NCBI GenBank assembly: GCA_001795975.1
Contig: MGLG01000046.1
Location: forward strand, 1-27,992
Length of the DNA stretch: 27,992 nt
Source of the DNA: Candidatus Yanofskybacteria bacterium RIFOXYD1_FULL_42_10
Lineage (GTDB): Bacteria; Patescibacteriota; Minisyncoccia; 2-02-FULL-40-12; GWA2-44-9
Direction of reading: 5' to 3'
The notes under the pieces were generated by a model. It did not search any database. It was not told where the DNA came from and worked only from the letters and a program-made list of their open reading frames with translations. Shown piece by piece: positions 1,112 to 27,992 of the stretch (the stretch's first letter is position 1; the number at the start of each line of letters is the position of its first letter). The position numbers and the translations under genes are program-made.

Positions 1112-3022
1112 ATGGAAGAAATAAAAATCGGCAATAAAAAGGTCGGAGGCAATAACCCAGTTTTTGTTGTGGCTGAAATCGGTTTAAACCATCAGGGAGA
1201 TGTAAAAATTGCCAAAAAATTGATTGATTTGGCTGTTGGAGCCGGATTTGATTGTGTGAAATTCCAAAAACGCAATCTGGATAAAATTTATAAAAAAAAT
1301 GTCTTGGCCAATCCGGAAAATCAAGAACATGGGAATCACTATGTTTTAGAAAATCTTAAAAAAACAGAACTCACAGAAAGCGAGATGAGGGATCTCTGCC
1401 TCTATAGTCGCAAAAAGGGCATAGAATTTTTATGCACTCCTTGGGATGAAGAAAGTTTAAAATTTTTATCCACTCTTAATTTGTCGGCTTATAAAATTTC
1501 TTCCGCCGACATGATTAATTTTAAGCTTATTCACGCAGCTTCTTTATTAAACAAACCGCTGATTATTTCTACGGGAATGTCTTTTGTGTCGGAGATAGAA
1601 CGCTTGGTGGAATTTTTGGGGGAAATAAGGGCGCAATATATATTGCTTCATTGCAATAGCACTTATCCTGCTCCCTATCACGACATAAACTTAAAATTTA
1701 TTCCCACCCTGATTAATAAATTTAATTGTAATGTGGGATATTCGGGGCACGAACAAGGCATTGCCGTCAGTCTTGCTGCGGTTTCAATGGGGGCTAAATT
1801 AATTGAAAGACATATCACTCTTGATGGAAATCTGCCCGGGCCGGATCATAGAGCCAGTCTTGAACCGGATGAATTTTTTGAATTAATGAAACAGATAAGA
1901 ATTGTTGAAGCGTCGCTGGGTGAACCGATACGTTATCCTTCCAGGGGCGAATATTTGAATCGCGAAGCTCTTTCTAAAAGTATAGTCGCTACCCGTAATT
2001 TAAAGATGGGCGCAGTTTTGACATATGCTGATTTGGAATTGAGAAGCCCCGGTCAAGGAACCCATCCCCTGAAGATGGATTTATTTATCGGGAAAAAACT
2101 AATCAAACGTAATGTCCCGAAACATGATTATCTTCTTGATTCGGACATAGACACATTTAGTGGGAAATTACATGCGGAAATTTCCAGTCCCGTATCACTT
2201 AATCATAAATGGGGGCTTGTTGTCAGGATGAATGATATTGACTCATTGATTTATTCAAAACCCGATTTTGTGGAGGTTCATTTAACAAGCTCGGATGTTA
2301 ATCGTGATGCTACTTATAACAAAAAATATCCATATGATTTAGTAGTGCATGGACCGGAATATAATGAAGATCTACTTCTTGATTTGTCTAACTTAGATGA
2401 CAATGTGCGGACAAAATCAATAGAATTTTTTAATAAAGCTCTTGCACATGCCAGAAAATTTAAACATTTGTTCAAAAATAGAAATAAGCCGGTCAAATTT
2501 ATCGTACACCCCGGGGGAATGAATATGGACCAACCCTTGATGGTCGAGAAAACCAAGTTATATAAAAATTTAGCGGATTCACTGAAAAAATTAGATGGCG
2601 GTGGATTTGAATTATTAATTGAAAATATGCCGTGTCATCCTTGGTATTTTGGCGGTCGGTGGTTTCATGCTTCTTTTATGGATGCGGGTGAAATTGTTAA
2701 GTTTTCGCGTAAACATAAATATGGCATTGCATTTGATATATCTCACGCCGGTTTATTTTGTAATTTGTACAATAAAGATTTGACGCAGTTTACCAAGACG
2801 ATACTCCCGGTTACTAAATATCTGCATGTATCCGACGCGGCCGGCACTAACGGCGAAGGGCTTCAGATAGGGGATGGGACGATTGACTTTAAGACGATAT
2901 TGGCCCACCTTGTTAAAACTGACCTGTGGTTTTTACCGGAGATTTGGCAGGGTCATAAATATGGCGGCGAAGGATTGCTAAAAGCTTTAAAAAAACTAAA
3001 ACTGATAGATGCTAATTTTTAA
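1112..3022 (+). CDS. neuB: NeuB-family (N-acetylneuraminate/nonulosonate) synthase with SAF domain, fused to a C-terminal xylose-isomerase-like TIM barrel
   Basis: NeuB motifs AEIGLNHQG, KFQKR, HCNSTYP, GYSGHE, IERHITLD, PDHRASL. SAF-like KSIVATRNLKMG...PGQG. C-terminal LLIENMP, FDISHA, HVSDA, PEIWQGH. Confidence 0.9.
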   Translation: MEEIKIGNKKVGGNNPVFVVAEIGLNHQGDVKIAKKLIDLAVGAGFDCVKFQKRNLDKIYKKNVLANPENQEHGNHYVLENLKKTELTESEMRDLCLYSRKKGIEFLCTPWDEESLKFLSTLNLSAYKISSADMINFKLIHAASLLNKPLIISTGMSFVSEIERLVEFLGEIRAQYILLHCNSTYPAPYHDINLKFIPTLINKFNCNVGYSGHEQGIAVSLAAVSMGAKLIERHITLDGNLPGPDHRASLEPDEFFELMKQIRIVEASLGEPIRYPSRGEYLNREALSKSIVATRNLKMGAVLTYADLELRSPGQGTHPLKMDLFIGKKLIKRNVPKHDYLLDSDIDTFSGKLHAEISSPVSLNHKWGLVVRMNDIDSLIYSKPDFVEVHLTSSDVNRDATYNKKYPYDLVVHGPEYNEDLLLDLSNLDDNVRTKSIEFFNKALAHARKFKHLFKNRNKPVKFIVHPGGMNMDQPLMVEKTKLYKNLADSLKKLDGGGFELLIENMPCHPWYFGGRWFHASFMDAGEIVKFSRKHKYGIAFDISHAGLFCNLYNKDLTQFTKTILPVTKYLHVSDAAGTNGEGLQIGDGTIDFKTILAHLVKTDLWFLPEIWQGHKYGGEGLLKALKKLKLIDANF

Positions 3023-3031
3023 TTTTTAAAA

Positions 3032-4276
3032 ATGAGATTTGATGTAAAAAAATTAGAATGGGTGGATGAAAATGCCAAGAATATTTTTAGGGTTGTACCG
3101 CCTTATTATTTGTTGAGCGGGAACAGCAACAGTGATGGAGTCGCAAAGAAAAAAGTTATTTTTTTTGGCAGTTGTTTCAAGAATTTGCCTCGCGATGTGA
3201 ATCTTTCAGAGTATGTAAAGATAACTAATCAATGCCTTGATTTTGTCAGACGCGAATGCGCTGGGTGCGATTTGTACTACAAACCCCATCCGGCTGAAAC
3301 CGATGAATCTAAATCACTCAATCTTAATTCTTTTGAAATAGAAAAAGACAAAGCCATAGGTGAAGTGTTTCTGTATAAAAATTTAGATAAAATAAAATAT
3401 GTTTTTTCATCCCACTCCACGATATCGGTACCTGCTTTTAGTTTTGGTTTAAACTCTTATGTGTTTGCAAAGCTGTTTAAATCTTCTTTTGGCGAATTCA
3501 CAAAAAAAAGCTTCGAAGGGTTTTTAAAAGGAATGCCTGAAAATTATTATATTTTTGATTTAAATAAAAAATTGGAAGAAAATAAACTATTGTTTGCTGG
3601 TGAAGATTTTTTAAGCAAGCAGTGGGCGGGGATATTGGCCAATCACAAGGGGACTGTTTGGTTTGTTGCCGATGATCCTTCTCTTGTATTATCAATATTT
3701 GCATTTGTTAAGTTGATAAGAAGTCTTGCTCCCGGCCGGAAAATCGGCATGGTTATTGGGCGGCACGAGCGCTGGGACCTTATAAATATTAATGATTTAA
3801 AAGCTAATTTTGATGAGCTGGTTTTTTTGCCCATAGTTCGGTATACCATGAGGCCTTCCATGTTATATACAGCGATAAAAACCGCCTTAACGATAAAAAG
3901 GTTTAAAATAAAACTAGAGGATATAATATTCGGTTTTGGTCCCGAGGCCTTCCCCATCAATTGTTTTGCTTCATATTTTAAGAAAAATTTGCGCATCGGG
4001 CTTATTCCTAAAACGGTTTTTTATCTTAATCATAATTTTAATCCGCCGCTAAATAATTCCGATTTTTCTATTAAGGCCACAAGGTTATTTTTTATTAATT
4101 TTATGGAGCCGTTTTTGGGTCTTTATAAAACAATAGGAAGATTGCAGCGACATGGTGACAGGGGCGGATTTGGAATTGGCAGATATCAGAGTCCGTTAAA
4201 TGAAGTTTTTGATATTGTCTATATCTCAAAATATATTGATGAGACAAAAACTCCAGTTGTAGATAAGGTTTGGTAA
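3032..4276 (+). CDS. Putative ulosonate (sialyl-like) transferase with HP motif; paralog of 18268..19476
   Basis: YKPHP plus downstream VFSSHSTIS motifs, typical of CMP-sugar GT-B transferases. Directly follows neuB. Aligns by eye along its whole length with the 18268 ORF. Confidence 0.55.
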   Translation: MRFDVKKLEWVDENAKNIFRVVPPYYLLSGNSNSDGVAKKKVIFFGSCFKNLPRDVNLSEYVKITNQCLDFVRRECAGCDLYYKPHPAETDESKSLNLNSFEIEKDKAIGEVFLYKNLDKIKYVFSSHSTISVPAFSFGLNSYVFAKLFKSSFGEFTKKSFEGFLKGMPENYYIFDLNKKLEENKLLFAGEDFLSKQWAGILANHKGTVWFVADDPSLVLSIFAFVKLIRSLAPGRKIGMVIGRHERWDLININDLKANFDELVFLPIVRYTMRPSMLYTAIKTALTIKRFKIKLEDIIFGFGPEAFPINCFASYFKKNLRIGLIPKTVFYLNHNFNPPLNNSDFSIKATRLFFINFMEPFLGLYKTIGRLQRHGDRGGFGIGRYQSPLNEVFDIVYISKYIDETKTPVVDKVW

Positions 4277-4300
4277 ACATATCGTCATAAAATAATAAAG

Positions 4301-5023
4301 ATGGGTAAATTTAAACAAACAAAAAGAATCCTATATTTAGGCGGAAAGGATGGAGAAAGATTATATCTTAATGACCTTAAATTTAAGATGGCAGACGGAA
4401 CGCGTGTTCGGGTTAAAAAAACCATGATACCCGGTAAAAATTCAAAAGACCTTATCGCTAGATCTAAGGGGAGGTATGCTCTTTTGGGATTGTTTAGCCG
4501 GCCAGGATATCGCGTGCTAGATTTTCCTTGCGGAAGCGGTTATGTGGCCGATTTCTTAAAAGAGTTTGGGATAAAGTATGAAGGTAAGGAATGCGACAAA
4601 ATAACCGTTGAATATGCCAAAAGAATGTACGGTGGCTCAAATACCCATTTTTCTTTTGGGGATCTTTGTTCTTCTAAATTAAAAATAAAATATTATGATA
4701 CGATCGGATGCATAGAAGGACTTGAACATATAGACAAAGAATACCAGGAACCGCTTATCGCCGAACTGTATTCTGCTCTTAAACCGGGAGGAACTTTGAT
4801 TATAAGCTCGCCGGAGAATACAGAGGGGGTTTCCGGCTCGAGCAAGGTTAATCCTTATCATAAGTGGGAGCTTACGAAAAATGATTTTTTAAATCTTTTA
4901 TATACCAAATTTAAATCTGAAGAAGTCGTAATAGTTTCATATAAGGTGGTGCTATCTTATGGTGCCCAATTAACAACTTGTTTTTTTGGAATTTGCCACA
5001 AAGAATATGAAAAAGAGAAATAA
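4301..5023 (+). CDS. Class I SAM-dependent methyltransferase
   Basis: Motif I VLDFPCGSGY, plus IEGLEHI and LKPGGTLIISSP. Confidence 0.85.
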   Translation: MGKFKQTKRILYLGGKDGERLYLNDLKFKMADGTRVRVKKTMIPGKNSKDLIARSKGRYALLGLFSRPGYRVLDFPCGSGYVADFLKEFGIKYEGKECDKITVEYAKRMYGGSNTHFSFGDLCSSKLKIKYYDTIGCIEGLEHIDKEYQEPLIAELYSALKPGGTLIISSPENTEGVSGSSKVNPYHKWELTKNDFLNLLYTKFKSEEVVIVSYKVVLSYGAQLTTCFFGICHKEYEKEK

Positions 5024-5783
5024 AATTGGGTGCTTTATTTTAAGCCGTTTAAGTTCTTCAAGGTTGCCCGGCAAAGCGCTTATGGAAATACGAGGAAAGC
5101 CCATTGTTCAGCATATTATTGAAAGAGCTCGCCTGATTCCTTCTTCGCAAGTTGTTGCTTTGTGCACTTCTGCTGAAAAGAGCGATGATCCGCTTGCTTT
5201 AACAGCAAAGAAATGCGGCGCCGATGTTTATCGCGGCCCTCTAAGCGATATATTGAAAAGATTTTTGGGCGCGGCTGATAAGTTCGGCGTTGATTATTTT
5301 GCCATATTTTCAGGCGACAATCTTTTTTGCGATCCACATTTGGCTGAACTTGGCATCAAGCAGATGTTGGATAACGAACTAGATTTTCTTAATGTTGCCC
5401 CAGATTTGGTTTGTGGAGGCACTCCCTATTGTGTATCTGTAAAAGCTTTACGCAAAGCCTGCCAATTAAAGAGCGATGATAATACTGAATATTATCCCAA
5501 GTTTTTTAACGGCAATAAGGAGTTTAAAGTAGCTAATCATTTGGTTGACGACCCCATTTATCACAACAAGAATGTGAGACTGACAATGGACTATCCGGAG
5601 GATTTGAAATTTGTAAAAAGAATTTTTGATGAGTTTGACACGGATTATAATTCCATGCCTCTTAAAAAAATATTGGAATTGTTAAAGCAAAAGCCGGAAA
5701 TAGTTAAAATTAACTTTGTCCGTCACAAAGATTGGGCCAAGAATCAAATACCGATGAAAGTTGTGGGGCTAGTAAAAAAATAA
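5007..5783 (+). CDS. spsF: SpsF-type acylneuraminate cytidylyltransferase family protein
   Basis: RLSSSRLPGKAL nucleotide-binding motif, YRG..SDILKRF, GDNLFCDP, RLTMDYPEDL. ATG 5007 preferred over TTG 4986. Confidence 0.85.
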   Translation: MKKRNKIGCFILSRLSSSRLPGKALMEIRGKPIVQHIIERARLIPSSQVVALCTSAEKSDDPLALTAKKCGADVYRGPLSDILKRFLGAADKFGVDYFAIFSGDNLFCDPHLAELGIKQMLDNELDFLNVAPDLVCGGTPYCVSVKALRKACQLKSDDNTEYYPKFFNGNKEFKVANHLVDDPIYHNKNVRLTMDYPEDLKFVKRIFDEFDTDYNSMPLKKILELLKQKPEIVKINFVRHKDWAKNQIPMKVVGLVKK

Positions 5784-11300: not shown

Positions 11301-12116
11301 ATGATAAAAAGCTTAAAACCGCAGCGACCCAAAACCGTTGTGTTTGTTCAGGTAAGAACCGGCAGTACGAGGTTCCCCGGAAAGATAATGAACAAAATTG
11401 GGAAAAGGGAGATATTTCTTGTGCAATTGGATAGAATGAAGCCTTCTAAAAGCGCCGACCAAATTGTTGTTGTTACTACTGTTAAAAAACGCGATGATGT
11501 AATAGTCAGGCTGTGCCGAAAGAACAAGATACCTTATTTCCGCGGTAGCGAGGAAGATTTACTTGATCGGTACTATCAAGCGGCCAAAAAATTCAAGGCC
11601 GAACTTGTCGTTAAAATTCCTTCGGACGAACCATTGATGGATGCCGATGTAATGGATACGGTTATCAGAGAAATGCATCAAAATTTGGATAAATATGATT
11701 TTGTAAGCAATCTTCACCCGCCTTCTTATCCCGATGGTCTTGATGTCGAGATAATGACCTTTAAAGCCTTAGAGATTGCGTGGAAAAAGGCAAAGAAGCC
11801 ATATGAGAGAGAACATCTCACCCCATATATTTGGGATAACCCCGGACTTTTTAGGGTTGGAAATGTCGCTAATAAATACGGGGACATGTTTATGACTCAT
11901 CGTTGGACATTGGATTATCCGGAAGATTTTAATTTTTTTAAAGCGGTTTTTTCATCTTTTAAAAATAAAAATAAATTCAAGATGGAGGATATTTTAAAAT
12001 TACTTGATAAACATCCGGAGATCGCCGCCATCAATACCAAACATATGGGCATAAATTGGTTCCGGCATGTCGGCGACCAACTTAAAACAGTTGATTCTAA
12101 ATTTTATAGAAAATAA
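11301..12116 (+). CDS. spsF: Second SpsF-type cytidylyltransferase
   Basis: VQVRTGSTRFPGK, RGSEEDLLDRYY, YPDGLDVE, REHLTPYI, RWTLDYPED. Confidence 0.9.
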   Translation: MIKSLKPQRPKTVVFVQVRTGSTRFPGKIMNKIGKREIFLVQLDRMKPSKSADQIVVVTTVKKRDDVIVRLCRKNKIPYFRGSEEDLLDRYYQAAKKFKAELVVKIPSDEPLMDADVMDTVIREMHQNLDKYDFVSNLHPPSYPDGLDVEIMTFKALEIAWKKAKKPYEREHLTPYIWDNPGLFRVGNVANKYGDMFMTHRWTLDYPEDFNFFKAVFSSFKNKNKFKMEDILKLLDKHPEIAAINTKHMGINWFRHVGDQLKTVDSKFYRK

Positions 12117-12499: not shown

Positions 12500-13585
12500 A
12501 TGATTCTGGCTGTGGTTAAAGATCCTGGCGGAACTAATGGAGTTTTGCCGGTCGTAAAAGTGTTGCGAGGAGAGAGCTTTAAATTTGATGTTCGTCTTAT
12601 AGCTAACGGCAGTGCAGTTAAACTTTTGTCGGATACAACCGAAAACTATGAAGCCTTGCATTCTGCTGATGAGGTTTCTATGCGCTATCCAAATCCAAGT
12701 ATCATGCTGACCAGCATGTGTTCTGATGGCGGAGTCGGCCGAGATTTGGTGCCCTTGCTTAGAGGCACATGCCCGACCGTCGCCTTTCACGATTATTGGG
12801 GAACAAGGCTTTTCCCCGAATGGCATGACCCTAAATATCGACCTGATTTTTTTGTTGTCAATGATGAACTTGATGCTAATATTGTAATGGGAGCTTGGCC
12901 TGATTACAAAAGAGAGCAATTTATTGTCAGCGGATATCCGATGTTTGATCAATATGCAGTTAAATATGATCAGACAGAATTGCTGACCAGTATTTCTTCT
13001 CGGTTGGGCATTGATGCCGCAAACAAGCCGATTGTTTTGTCTGCTTACGGAATTTATAAGGGTGTAAACAAATTTCTTTCAGAAGTCATTGATGTTCTGA
13101 ATGATCTCAATCTTGATATTTATTTTATTCCAAGGTTCCATCCCCGAATGAAGTTGAATGTTCCCGAAGAGGTTGAGCTTTGTAATCAAGTCCTTAAAAG
13201 ATTCAACGGCGGCACATTAGTAGAAAGCTCTTCAGCTTGTACTACGCAGGAGCTTCTTAGGGCATCAACAGTAGTCTTGTCGGACTATTCCACCACTCTT
13301 CTTGAGGCAACTTTACTTAGAAAGCCGAATATATCAGCATGTTATTTAGAAGAAATTAAGGTTAATTATCAAGTAGAATTTGGAACGGTTCAAAAATGGA
13401 TGCCAGATCCTCCATTTGTAATGTTAGGTTGTTCAGCCAAAGCTGTAGATAAAATTTCTCTAGGTCAACACTTATCGGATGCTATTCATGGTAAACTTAA
13501 CTTGAAAAGCGCTCAAGAAAAGTACTTTGCCCTTGATGGTCAGAACGCTAAAAGAGCGGCAGAAAAAATCGCTTCTTTAATATAA
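12500..13585 (+). CDS. GT-B fold protein with C-terminal HP motif (CDP-glycerol glycerophosphotransferase/ulosonate transferase-like)
   Basis: N-terminal KDPGGTNG, G.PMFD linker, RFHPRM, VLSDYSTTLLEATLLRKP. Confidence 0.6.
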   Translation: MILAVVKDPGGTNGVLPVVKVLRGESFKFDVRLIANGSAVKLLSDTTENYEALHSADEVSMRYPNPSIMLTSMCSDGGVGRDLVPLLRGTCPTVAFHDYWGTRLFPEWHDPKYRPDFFVVNDELDANIVMGAWPDYKREQFIVSGYPMFDQYAVKYDQTELLTSISSRLGIDAANKPIVLSAYGIYKGVNKFLSEVIDVLNDLNLDIYFIPRFHPRMKLNVPEEVELCNQVLKRFNGGTLVESSSACTTQELLRASTVVLSDYSTTLLEATLLRKPNISACYLEEIKVNYQVEFGTVQKWMPDPPFVMLGCSAKAVDKISLGQHLSDAIHGKLNLKSAQEKYFALDGQNAKRAAEKIASLI

Positions 13586-17401: not shown

Positions 17402-18265
17402 ATGATAAATTTTAAGAATTTAAAAAAGCCGTATTTAATCGCCGAAATAGGAATCAACCATAACGGCGATTTGCAGATTGCAAAGAAACTTATTGATGCC
17501 GCTTTTTCCTGTTCCTGGGATTGCGCCAAATTTCAAAAGAGAAATCCTGATATTTCCGTGCCAGAACACCAGAAAAACCAACCCAAAGACACTCCCTGGG
17601 GCCAGATGACCTATCTTGAATATAAATACCGGATGGAATTCGGGGAAAAAGAATACGACCAAATAGATAAATATTGCAAGCACAAACCGATAGATTGGAC
17701 GGCGTCGGTTTGGGATCTTGATAGTTTGGAATTTATTAAAAAATATAACCCCCCGTTTATTAAAATTCCTTCGGCCCACTTAACCAATCATAAATTATTA
17801 AAAGTAACTGCACAGACCGGCATTCCCGTGGTGGCATCAACCGGCATGAGCACGCTTAAAGAAATTGACGAAGCAGTGGCTATTCTAAAAAAACATTCTT
17901 CTCAATTTGTTTTAATGCACTGCAATTCTTCTTACCCGGCAAAATTGCATGAACTTAATTTAAAAGTAATTCCACAATTCGCTAAGCGTTATAAGTGTGT
18001 TATGGGTTATAGCGGCCATGAATTTGGTTTGGCTACTACGACTATTGCCATGACTCTAGGAGCTCAAGTTATTGAAAGACATATTACCCTTGATCATACC
18101 ATGTGGGGAACCGACCAAACAGCAAGTATTGAAATCCAGGGCATGGATAAGTTTTATAAACAAATTGTAGACGCAACTCTTTGCATGGGGGACGGCAAAA
18201 AAAGGGTTTATGAAACCGAGTTAGCTATGAAGAAAAAGTTAAGAGGTGATTCTTTCGGTAAATAA
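17402..18265 (+). CDS. neuB: Short NeuB-family synthase lacking the SAF domain
   Basis: AEIGINHNG, KFQKRNP, TPWGQMTYLEYK, HCNSSYP, GYSGHE, IERHITLD, GTDQTAS. Ends at 287 aa. Confidence 0.9.
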   Translation: MINFKNLKKPYLIAEIGINHNGDLQIAKKLIDAAFSCSWDCAKFQKRNPDISVPEHQKNQPKDTPWGQMTYLEYKYRMEFGEKEYDQIDKYCKHKPIDWTASVWDLDSLEFIKKYNPPFIKIPSAHLTNHKLLKVTAQTGIPVVASTGMSTLKEIDEAVAILKKHSSQFVLMHCNSSYPAKLHELNLKVIPQFAKRYKCVMGYSGHEFGLATTTIAMTLGAQVIERHITLDHTMWGTDQTASIEIQGMDKFYKQIVDATLCMGDGKKRVYETELAMKKKLRGDSFGK

Positions 18266-26887: not shown

Positions 26888-27992
26888 GTGATTACAAAAG
26901 AACCGATTTTAGCTAAAATACTGCGATATTTAATGTATGCCACGGCATTGGTGCCTTTGATTATTTTTTCGCAGTTTATGTCGCCTTTTCATTTTGGAAA
27001 AGTGATTGTTTTTCGAAGCTTGATAGAAATTGCTGCCATTCTATATATTTTATTGATTTGGCAAGACAGAACTTATTTGCCCAAAATAAATAAAATTTTT
27101 TGGGCATTTTTTCTGTTTGTCATTGCTTTTACTGTTACGACCGTAACTAGCATGGCGCCTTTTTCAAGTTTTTGGGGATCTCTTGAGAGGATGGGTGGTC
27201 TTTGGACATTTGGGCATTATTTTGTGTTTTTTGTAATTCTTATATCGGTCTTAAGATCTAAGCAGGATTGGAACTTATTTTTAGAGATTATTATTGTTTC
27301 GGGAATTTTATCCGCTATTTACGGATTCGGACAAAAAACCGATATGAAATTTTTTATCGGCAGTGGAAACAGGGCGAGAATTTTCGGTACGCTTGGTAAT
27401 CCCGCCTTATTTGCCGGTTATCAATTGCTTACACTATTTTTAGCCGGCACCTTATTTTTTAGAAAAGATAATTCCAGAAATAAAAAAATATTTTTTGGTT
27501 TGGCGGCAATTATTATGTCTGTGGCTGTTTTAATGACTGCCGTCAGGGGTTCCATTCTTGCTTTAGGCCTTGGGTTTTTAATTTTTGCTTTTTTATATTC
27601 TTGGCATTATAAAACCAAAATTGCCAAAAAAATTCTTATTGGCTTATTATTCTGCGCCGCTTTGTTCGTGATTTTTTCTTTAACCATGAAAAATACGGCA
27701 TTTGTCACAAAGTCCAGTTATTTGACCAGGGTTACCAATCTTTCTTTCGGTAATTTTACGGTTCAAACAAGATTTTGGGCTTGGCAAGCGGGTCTTAAGG
27801 GGTGGAGCGAAAGTCCAAGAACCGTATTACTGGGTTGGGGACCGGAAAATTTTAACATTCCTTTTTCAAAAAACTTTAATCCAAAATTTTTCACGGGACC
27901 CGGCTCCGAAACTCTTTTTGACCGCGCTCACAATATGTTTGTTGAGGTTTTGGTGACTATGGGATTGTTGGGTTTTCTCGCATATGCGGGAT
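26888..27992 (+). CDS. O-antigen ligase/Wzy_C-like membrane protein (3'-truncated by the window edge; not in the ORF track)
   Basis: Translated by hand at both ends and at key motifs, which are in one frame: PFHFGKVIVFRSLIEI, GTLGNPALFAGY, GWGPENF, FDRAHN. Multiple TM segments. Start GTG 26888 or ATG 26933. Confidence 0.85.
   Translation, partial: MITKEPILAKILRYLMYATALVPLIIFSQFMSPFHFGKVIVFRSLIEIAAILYILLIWQDRTYLPKINKIFWAFFLFVIAFTVTTVTSMAPFSSFWGSLERMGGLWTFGHYFVFFVILISVLRSKQDWNLFLEIIIVSGILSAIYGFGQKTDMKFFIGSGNRARIFGTLGNPALFAGYQLLTLFLAGTLFFRKDNSRNKKIFFGLAAIIMSVAVLMTAVRGSILALGLGFLIFAFLYSWHYKTKIAKKILIGLLFCAALFVIFSLTMKNTAFVTKSSYLTRVTNLSFGNFTVQTRFWAWQAGLKGWSESPRTVLLGWGPENFNIPFSKNFNPKFFTGPGSETLFDRAHNMFVEVLVTMGLLGFLAYAG

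Follow-up and report, generated by a model that had tools for sequence, protein, structure and literature searches.

Swapped domain order in two putative GT-B sugar transferases from a Candidatus Yanofskybacteria surface-glycan locus

Glycosyltransferases have two main folds, of which GT-B is one, and catalysis by its members is thought to depend on hinge-mediated closure of two domains. What, then, is to be made of a gene that appears to encode these domains in reverse order? The gene in question lies at positions 3032-4276 of a 27,992-nucleotide (nt) stretch of DNA (28 kb; hereafter, the window) from Candidatus Yanofskybacteria bacterium RIFOXYD1_FULL_42_10, which is the entire contig C46 of a 715 kb genome (59 contigs, 87.5% complete). 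A preliminary description of the window had proposed that the product, here termed P0001, is a transferase-like protein with a His-Pro (HP) motif whose donor-binding and acceptor-binding domains are swapped relative to known transferases. Our analyses make it practically certain that the circular permutation is real, and very likely that P0001 and a paralog in the same window, P0002, are natural circular permutants of a GT-B group that carries the HP motif and depends on sugars activated with cytidine monophosphate (CMP). The relevant features are given below, with equivalent positions in P0082, a relative of canonical domain order, and in MhPST, the solved GT38 polysialyltransferase of Mannheimia haemolytica.

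3032-4276, forward strand: P0001, 414 amino acids (aa), predicted circularly permuted HP-motif GT-B transferase, donor domain followed by acceptor domain
18268-19476, forward strand: P0002, 402-aa paralog with the same permuted order, HP motif at H83-P84
3032-3592, forward strand: P0001 residues 1-187, hinge remnant (1-17) and predicted CMP-sugar (donor) binding Rossmann domain, equivalent to P0082 229-396
3593-3652, forward strand: P0001 residues 188-207, new connector with a helix at 192-204, judged from the secondary structure of both models
3638-4255, forward strand: P0001 residues 203-408, acceptor-side Rossmann domain, equivalent to P0082 11-223
3281-3292, forward strand: P0001 K84-P85-H86-P87, HP motif, by position MhPST K289, H291 and P292
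3362-3364, forward strand: P0001 E111, candidate ribose-binding Glu, by position (spacing) MhPST E323
3416-3421, forward strand: P0001 S129-T130, candidate phosphate-binding pair, by spacing MhPST S339/T340

Every motif that the preliminary description had quoted for this open reading frame (ORF) was located at the positions it had given. The donor half holds KKVIFFG (residues 40-46), YKPHP (83-87), E111 with the adjoining VFL, and VFSSHSTIS (124-132), while the acceptor half holds TVWFVADD (208-215), KIGMVIGRHERW (237-248), FDELVFLP (260-267) and DIIFGFG (297-303), with conserved residues at W210, D214-D215-P216, H245-x-R247-W248, D297, N310 and S314. P0002 had been said to share the order of P0001, and the two are indeed colinear, with 35% identity across 379 residues (E-value 1e-81).

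A word-indexed search returned 47 homologs of P0001. The 43 homologs that were aligned (alignment A1) are approximately 390-430 aa long and colinear with P0001 over their full length at 32-61% identity; those with names come from Candidatus Yanofskybacteria, Paceibacterota, Vogelbacteria and Roizmanbacteria. Residues P24, G46, N66, L69, R73, H86, P87, L98, F101, F125, S129, F145, N184 and S314 are invariant across the alignment. The A1 profile was then used for a HMMER search that was exhaustive over 1.84 billion representative proteins and gave 317 matches. Below the colinear family stood approximately 60 proteins of about 400 aa that matched in two stretches placed in swapped register: residues 222-411 of P0082, for example, match query positions 7-196 (E-value 5e-66), and residues 5-201 of another such protein, P0136, match query positions 202-395. 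The same relationship was recovered with BLASTP, in which P0001 11-185 aligns with P0082 228-397 (42% identity, E-value 1e-33) and P0001 207-328 with P0082 15-145 (E-value 2e-4). Searching for opposite-order homologs by means of each half, as had been suggested at the outset, yields about 60 canonical-order relatives with E-values down to 1e-66.

To compare the families at the level of profiles, 45 canonical-order proteins were aligned (alignment A2), and each half of A1 was compared with them separately using hhalign. P0001 15-187 corresponds to P0082 229-396 (E-value 7.8e-49), and P0001 203-408 corresponds to P0082 11-223 (E-value 1e-36). Separate hidden Markov models (HMMs) of the two halves sorted 192 proteins into 81 with the donor-acceptor (permuted) order, 60 with the acceptor-donor (canonical) order, 50 single-domain matches and one protein with a split acceptor match; most of the single-domain matches are short (100-290 aa) and are probably fragments or divergent. 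In the reverse direction, the A2 profile matched both P0001 and P0002 in swapped register, and a search with it found no canonical copy in the genome to which the window belongs.

Canonical members include P0082, P0083 (MFC1920727.1, a Chloroflexota 'hypothetical protein') and the AFDB entry A0A0G1VRK8. This sister family is homologous to the window proteins in both domains (identities of 40% for the donor domain and 17-20% for the acceptor domain), possesses the same HP, E and S-T residues and the same W-x3-D-(H/D)-P, H-x-(R/Y)-W and L-E-N motifs, and has NeuB, CTP_transf_3 and NeuC neighbors as they do. It differs in that the acceptor domain precedes the donor domain and the C-terminal helix is free, whereas the window proteins begin at the hinge and hold that helix internally.

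Pfam models gave an independent indication of the order. When the 43 family members were scanned singly, 13 matched PF07388 (polysialyltransferase, GT38) and nine matched PF07922 (GT52), with one relative, P0033, exceeding the curated Pfam cut-off (30.8 versus 26.1 bits). In the rows inspected, the stretch of the model with which residues ~10-135 align is C-terminal (143-252 of 272 for GT52; 197-306 of 316 for polysialyltransferase). Because the matches fall there, the N-terminal third of the permuted proteins is homologous to the CMP-binding C-terminal part of bacterial sialyltransferases. Canonical members also match PF07388, with E-values down to 6.8e-10. Thus, alignments both to known transferases and to the nearest canonical relatives are swapped rather than colinear, which bears out the domain swap as first proposed.

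The same arrangement was apparent in predicted structures. An AlphaFold2 model of P0001 built with A1 reached a predicted local distance difference test score (pLDDT) of 91.1 and a predicted template-modeling score (pTM) of 0.90. In an exhaustive structural comparison the model found matches only one domain at a time, and domain by domain its fold is that of a GT-B enzyme, as had been anticipated; residues 2-190 of a canonical 'capsule polysaccharide biosynthesis protein' in AFDB, for instance, match residues 214-400 of the model. A canonical control model aligned over its full length, and its best full-length structural match was a GT38 polysialyltransferase. A0A0G1WRP6, a same-order relative modeled independently in AFDB, superposes on the P0001 model with a template-modeling (TM) score of 0.87 (root-mean-square deviation 2.6 Å), although this score and the pTM of 0.90 would mean only that the domain packing is consistently predicted, not that the domains adopt the canonical GT-B mutual geometry. 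Foldseek, which needs colinearity, returned two matches at E-value <=1e-3 for the P0001 model, both with TM <=0.25, and no meaningful full-length match. This poor result is expected for a permutant and gives no indication of a new fold.

GT-B enzymes are built in the order acceptor domain, hinge, donor domain and, usually, a C-terminal helix that crosses back; P0001 departs from it, with the donor domain at ~18-187 and the acceptor domain at ~203-408. After rotation, however, the secondary-structure elements of the P0001 and P0082 models pair one to one: P0082 strands 16-21 through 210-215 correspond to P0001 strands 209-213 through 395-399, and P0082 strand 232-236 through helix 364-374 corresponds to P0001 strand 18-21 through helix 155-165. 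Because the alignments end at P0001 408 (P0082 223) and restart at P0001 15 (P0082 229), the chain was opened inside the inter-domain hinge, which in MhPST comprises F227-N236 (PMC5517516). The sole unaligned stretch in the hhalign comparison, P0001 188-202, replaces P0082 397-416 and 1-10, and the C-terminal helix of P0082 (395-414) takes the place of P0001 helix 192-204, just ahead of the first strand (beta1) of the acceptor domain. The order of elements in the two models suggests that the old C-terminal helix and the old N-terminus would have been joined as one internal connector (188-207). The termini of an ordinary GT-B enzyme lie close together because its C-terminal helix returns to the N-terminal domain, and their fusion would for that reason be geometrically easy.

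To place the permuted proteins relative to canonical ones, a maximum-likelihood tree was built from the donor domains (126 rows). All but one of the 73 permuted rows fall on one side of a single branch (SH-aLRT 91), and the architecture label requires two changes on this tree compared to ~40 when labels are shuffled. In a subsample of 44 rows, a branch with SH-aLRT 88 separates all 22 permuted rows from the rest, and midpoint rooting places them among canonical lineages. The acceptor-donor order was taken as ancestral because the wider GT-B superfamily has it, and a single origin of the permuted form from a canonical ancestor is compatible with these data, which do not support it strongly. We saw no evidence for a split-gene stage among the short single-domain proteins; one of them, the donor-only P0140, is a truncated fragment, as its gene begins at base 1 of its contig.

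Within the genomes searched, the permuted and the canonical form are both rare. The A1 profile had no match in 400 other genomes of a sample across the phylum or in ten genomes of the same family, and the A2 profile likewise had none in 400 genomes of the phylum sample. Of 400 genomes in a sample of the class, four matched A1, three of them with the same order and two to three matches each and one (G478) with a weak partial match (E-value 1.3e-7). Genomes that have the permuted family usually hold two to three copies: L007 has a second copy at 19615-20880, behind a CTP_transf_3-NeuB-NeuC set, G767 has two in tandem (C4:16282-18667), and in G679 a 465-aa ORF (C3:240017-241264) is matched in two pieces.

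We then examined what the conserved residues suggest about activity. Across 74 donor-domain sequences of both architectures, K/R84 is conserved in 69, H86 in 73, P87 in 74, E111 in 71, S129 in 73 and T130 in 38. With H86, P87 and S129 invariant or nearly so, this pattern is far beyond chance. In MhPST, the cytosine is held by K289 and P292, the ribose hydroxyls by E323 and the phosphate by S339 and T340; the HP-motif residue H291 stabilizes CMP as the leaving group, and cytidine diphosphate (CDP) contacts only the C-terminal domain (PMC5517516). Spacing is comparable in the two proteins (K at HP-2, E at HP+25 and S-T at HP+43/44 in P0001; HP-2, +32 and +48/49 in MhPST), although the correspondence is positional only; residues were mapped to the solved enzymes by spacing alone because profile searches against Protein Data Bank (PDB) sequences gave noise or a marginal match. 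By analogy, the CMP leaving group would be stabilized by H86, and its cytosine, ribose and phosphate would be held by K84 and P87, by E111 and by S129/T130, respectively.

Conserved features of the acceptor domain follow strands, as expected for cleft-facing loops: W210 and D214-(D/H)215-P216 past beta1, H245-x-(R/Y)247-W248 past beta2, and L-E-N (309-310) with S314 past beta4. P0001 lacks a D/E-D/E-G string, and the Glu of L-E-N, found in 51 of 69 sequences and in 30 of the 43 permuted ones including P0002, is the best positional candidate for an equivalent catalytic base. The QXXXD nucleophile motif, invariant in retaining beta-Kdo (3-deoxy-D-manno-octulosonate) transferases (PMC10148158), is also absent; P0001 has G46-S-C-F-K-N51 there, and across the family position 47 varies, as does position 51 where it is not Asn. 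An inverting, sialyltransferase-like mechanism is favored because of this absence.

Further indications of function come from the genes around the two transferases:

1112-3022, forward strand: NeuB-family synthase fused to AP_endonuc_2 (xylose-isomerase-like TIM barrel), 9 nt upstream of P0001
4301-5023, forward strand: class I methyltransferase adjoining P0001 downstream
4986-5783, forward strand: CTP_transf_3 cytidylyltransferase (CMP-sugar synthetase type)
11301-12116, forward strand: second CTP_transf_3 cytidylyltransferase
17402-18265, forward strand: second NeuB-family synthase, 2 nt upstream of P0002
19497-20159, forward strand: class I methyltransferase adjoining P0002 downstream

Each of P0001 and P0002 has a NeuB synthase gene on one side and a methyltransferase gene on the other. 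The NeuB-AP_endonuc_2 fusion stands directly upstream of a permuted transferase in two genomes, the second being L007 (8073-9983). The block around another permuted member, P0006, consists of an ABC exporter, NeuB-AP_endonuc_2, the permuted transferase, a methyltransferase and CTP_transf_3, and the same contig has a second permuted copy after a CTP_transf_3-NeuB-NeuC set. The P0014 locus contains two NeuB, two CTP_transf_3, NeuC, DegT and an acetyltransferase, and canonical P0082 is followed by CTP_transf_3, NeuB, NeuC and another CTP_transf_3. NeuB and CTP_transf_3 thus flank permuted and canonical genes alike in unrelated contigs. Additionally, P0076 (643 aa) fuses a permuted transferase to a C-terminal Methyltransf_24 domain (477-594), tying transfer and methylation together. 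The remainder of the window makes up a surface-glycan locus, with genes for an ABC exporter, a B12/radical-SAM enzyme, a HAD phosphatase, an SDR, a transketolase, a class III aminotransferase and a DUF4910 protein, and, on the glycan side, two GT4 glycosyltransferases, a GDP-mannose dehydratase, an epimerase, a Wzx-like flippase and a Wzy_C protein.

From the NeuB/CTP_transf_3 setting we infer that each paralog transfers one CMP-nonulosonic acid made by the locus to a surface glycan. Each enzyme would take the CMP-activated nonulosonic sugar from the adjacent NeuB and CTP_transf_3 and pass it to a cell-surface glycan, and the neighboring methyltransferase would probably modify the same sugar or glycan. 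Motifs and gene neighborhood together make a CMP-nonulosonate transferase function probable. The more complete proposal is of a natural, active permutant of a sialyltransferase-like GT-B enzyme, of single origin and cut exactly at the hinge, that would install an undescribed, probably methylated nonulosonic acid on the surface of bacteria of the candidate phyla radiation (CPR); we give it a probability of roughly 45%.

Other explanations were weighed against the reading of P0001 and P0002 as permuted CMP-nonulosonate transferases. The swapped order might be a product of mis-assembly, or of a gene call that runs across two tandem canonical genes, such that acceptor-donor followed by acceptor-donor is read as donor-acceptor. 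The window comes from a metagenome-assembled genome in 59 fragments, and family copies in tandem do occur in one genome (G767), yet each of those copies is itself in the donor-acceptor order. The P0001 ORF is unbroken, begins 9 nt past the stop codon of NeuB and adjoins the methyltransferase gene, with no leftover half-domains on either side. The permuted order recurs in 81 proteins from many independent assemblies. In three studies, per-run contigs cover positions 2900-4400 in one piece with zero differences, but the runs concerned are possibly where this DNA came from; in a fourth study, the domain junction (3099-3715) is bridged by a contig that is not marked as a possible source. The view that the order is no one-off assembly artefact is upheld by the 81 proteins and the fourth-study contig, and the chance of an artefact is close to nil. 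In runs X3 and X7, another contig has 3014-3035 and 3543-3564 (22 nt each) one letter apart; the likely explanation is chance resemblance of A/T-rich sequence in a contig that is unrelated.

The remaining alternatives accept the permutation and concern what the proteins do. One is that the fold is kept while another CMP- or CDP-linked donor is used, as in the retaining beta-Kdo transferases KpsC and WbbB (CMP-Kdo) or in TagF-type enzymes (CDP-glycerol or CDP-ribitol). We regard this as unlikely, given the missing QXXXD motif, Pfam matches that are to GT52 and GT38 while no scanned family member matches Capsule_synth or Glyphos_transf, the GT38 polysialyltransferase as best full-length structural match of the canonical sister family, and flanking synthases that belong to the NeuB family rather than being KdsA. 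It is still less likely that the permuted proteins are catalytically dead and serve as CMP-sugar-binding or scaffold subunits, the permutation having been tolerated after catalysis was lost. This idea would accommodate the Ile that P0001 has in place of the L-E-N Glu and the acceptor domain's lack of any invariant acidic loop residue except D297, which sits at a strand start; against it stand the 96-100% conservation of H86, P87, E111 and S129 in the 74 sequences of both architectures, the 30 of 43 permuted members, P0002 among them, that keep the Glu, and full-length conservation across many lineages with a conserved neighborhood beside sugar-activation genes. Several results do weigh against the reading as permuted CMP-nonulosonate transferases, in addition to the restricted meaning of the packing scores given above. 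Neither P0001 nor P0002 has a significant Pfam or NCBIfam match (counted here for P0001), and searches of PDB sequences, with single sequences and with family profiles, gave noise or a marginal match to KpsC (6mgd, E-value 0.055). The branch uniting the permuted clade has a support of 88-91, below the tool's mark of 95, and no intermediates of duplication or fission (donor-acceptor-donor or acceptor-donor-acceptor) occur among the 192 collected proteins. Finally, at 3956-3961 (P0001 309-310), P0001 and two others of the 43 permuted proteins have Ile for the L-E-N Glu, a change that may point to another base, to catalysis assisted by the substrate or to lowered activity.

How do these proteins relate to known systems? 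The nearest solved relatives of the permutants are the bacterial sialyltransferases of GT38, GT52 and GT80, and the nearest of these is GT38, via the canonical sister family. Relative to GT38 MhPST (PDB 5WC6/5WCN; PF07388), the domain order of P0001 is reversed and P0001 falls under the Pfam cut-off. No counterpart of the MhPST base motif E152-E153 was located in P0001, and polymerase activity is not implied for it. MhPST itself lacks the C-terminal crossover helix (PMC5517516). In GT52 NST (PDB 2YK4; PF07922) and GT80 PmST1 (PDB 2ILV), only the C-terminal domain matches, to the N-terminal half of P0001, and no colinear full-length alignment of P0001 to either was found. The beta-Kdo transferases WbbB (GT99) and KpsC (GT107) differ in their QXXXD motif and in their acceptor domain, and the TagF-like CDP-glycerol/ribitol phosphotransferases (PF04464) differ in that the permuted family has no Glyphos_transf match. 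Because P0001 and P0002 depart from the GT-B chain topology and fall short of the GT38 and GT52 Pfam thresholds, we describe them as permutants of a known kind and not as members of either family. No natural circularly permuted GT-B enzyme or sialyltransferase was found in the open-access full-text literature, outside which most subscription journals lie.

If the permutation and the activity are both as proposed, GT-B catalysis would need no covalent hinge. The permuted and canonical families, with a donor domain that is ~40% identical, are a ready pair for testing the role of connectivity in closure, specificity and processivity. That colinear HMMs and Foldseek miss them explains the annotation of these genes as hypothetical proteins, and the present assignment provides candidate transferases for the nonulosonic-acid loci of CPR bacteria, about whose surface glycans almost nothing is known.

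A further gene of the locus, the ORF at 12500-13585, had been described as having the canonical order, and it does carry its HP motif (PRFHP) and S/T stretch (SDYSTT) in the C-terminal half. It is TagF/BFO_1060-like (Glyphos_transf, E-value 3.6e-8) and may be a second kind of ulosonate transferase or phosphotransferase in the locus; neither BLAST nor HMM comparisons connect it with P0001 or with the A1 and A2 profiles.

At the left end, the gene for the ABC exporter (3-1069) lies in two frames, frame 3 from 3 to ~197 and frame 2 from 191 to 1069, which match residues 263-325 and 326-617 of a 618-aa ABC_membrane+ABC_tran gene in L007 at 82% identity; the break near nt 190-200 is a frameshift or sequencing error. 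At the right end (21342-27991) lie a GT4 glycosyltransferase (reverse strand), a GDP-fucose-synthase-like epimerase (reverse strand), a GDP-mannose 4,6-dehydratase (reverse strand) and a Wzx-like flippase, together with a GIY-YIG nuclease (26561-26869) and a Wzy_C/O-antigen-ligase-like protein truncated by the contig end.

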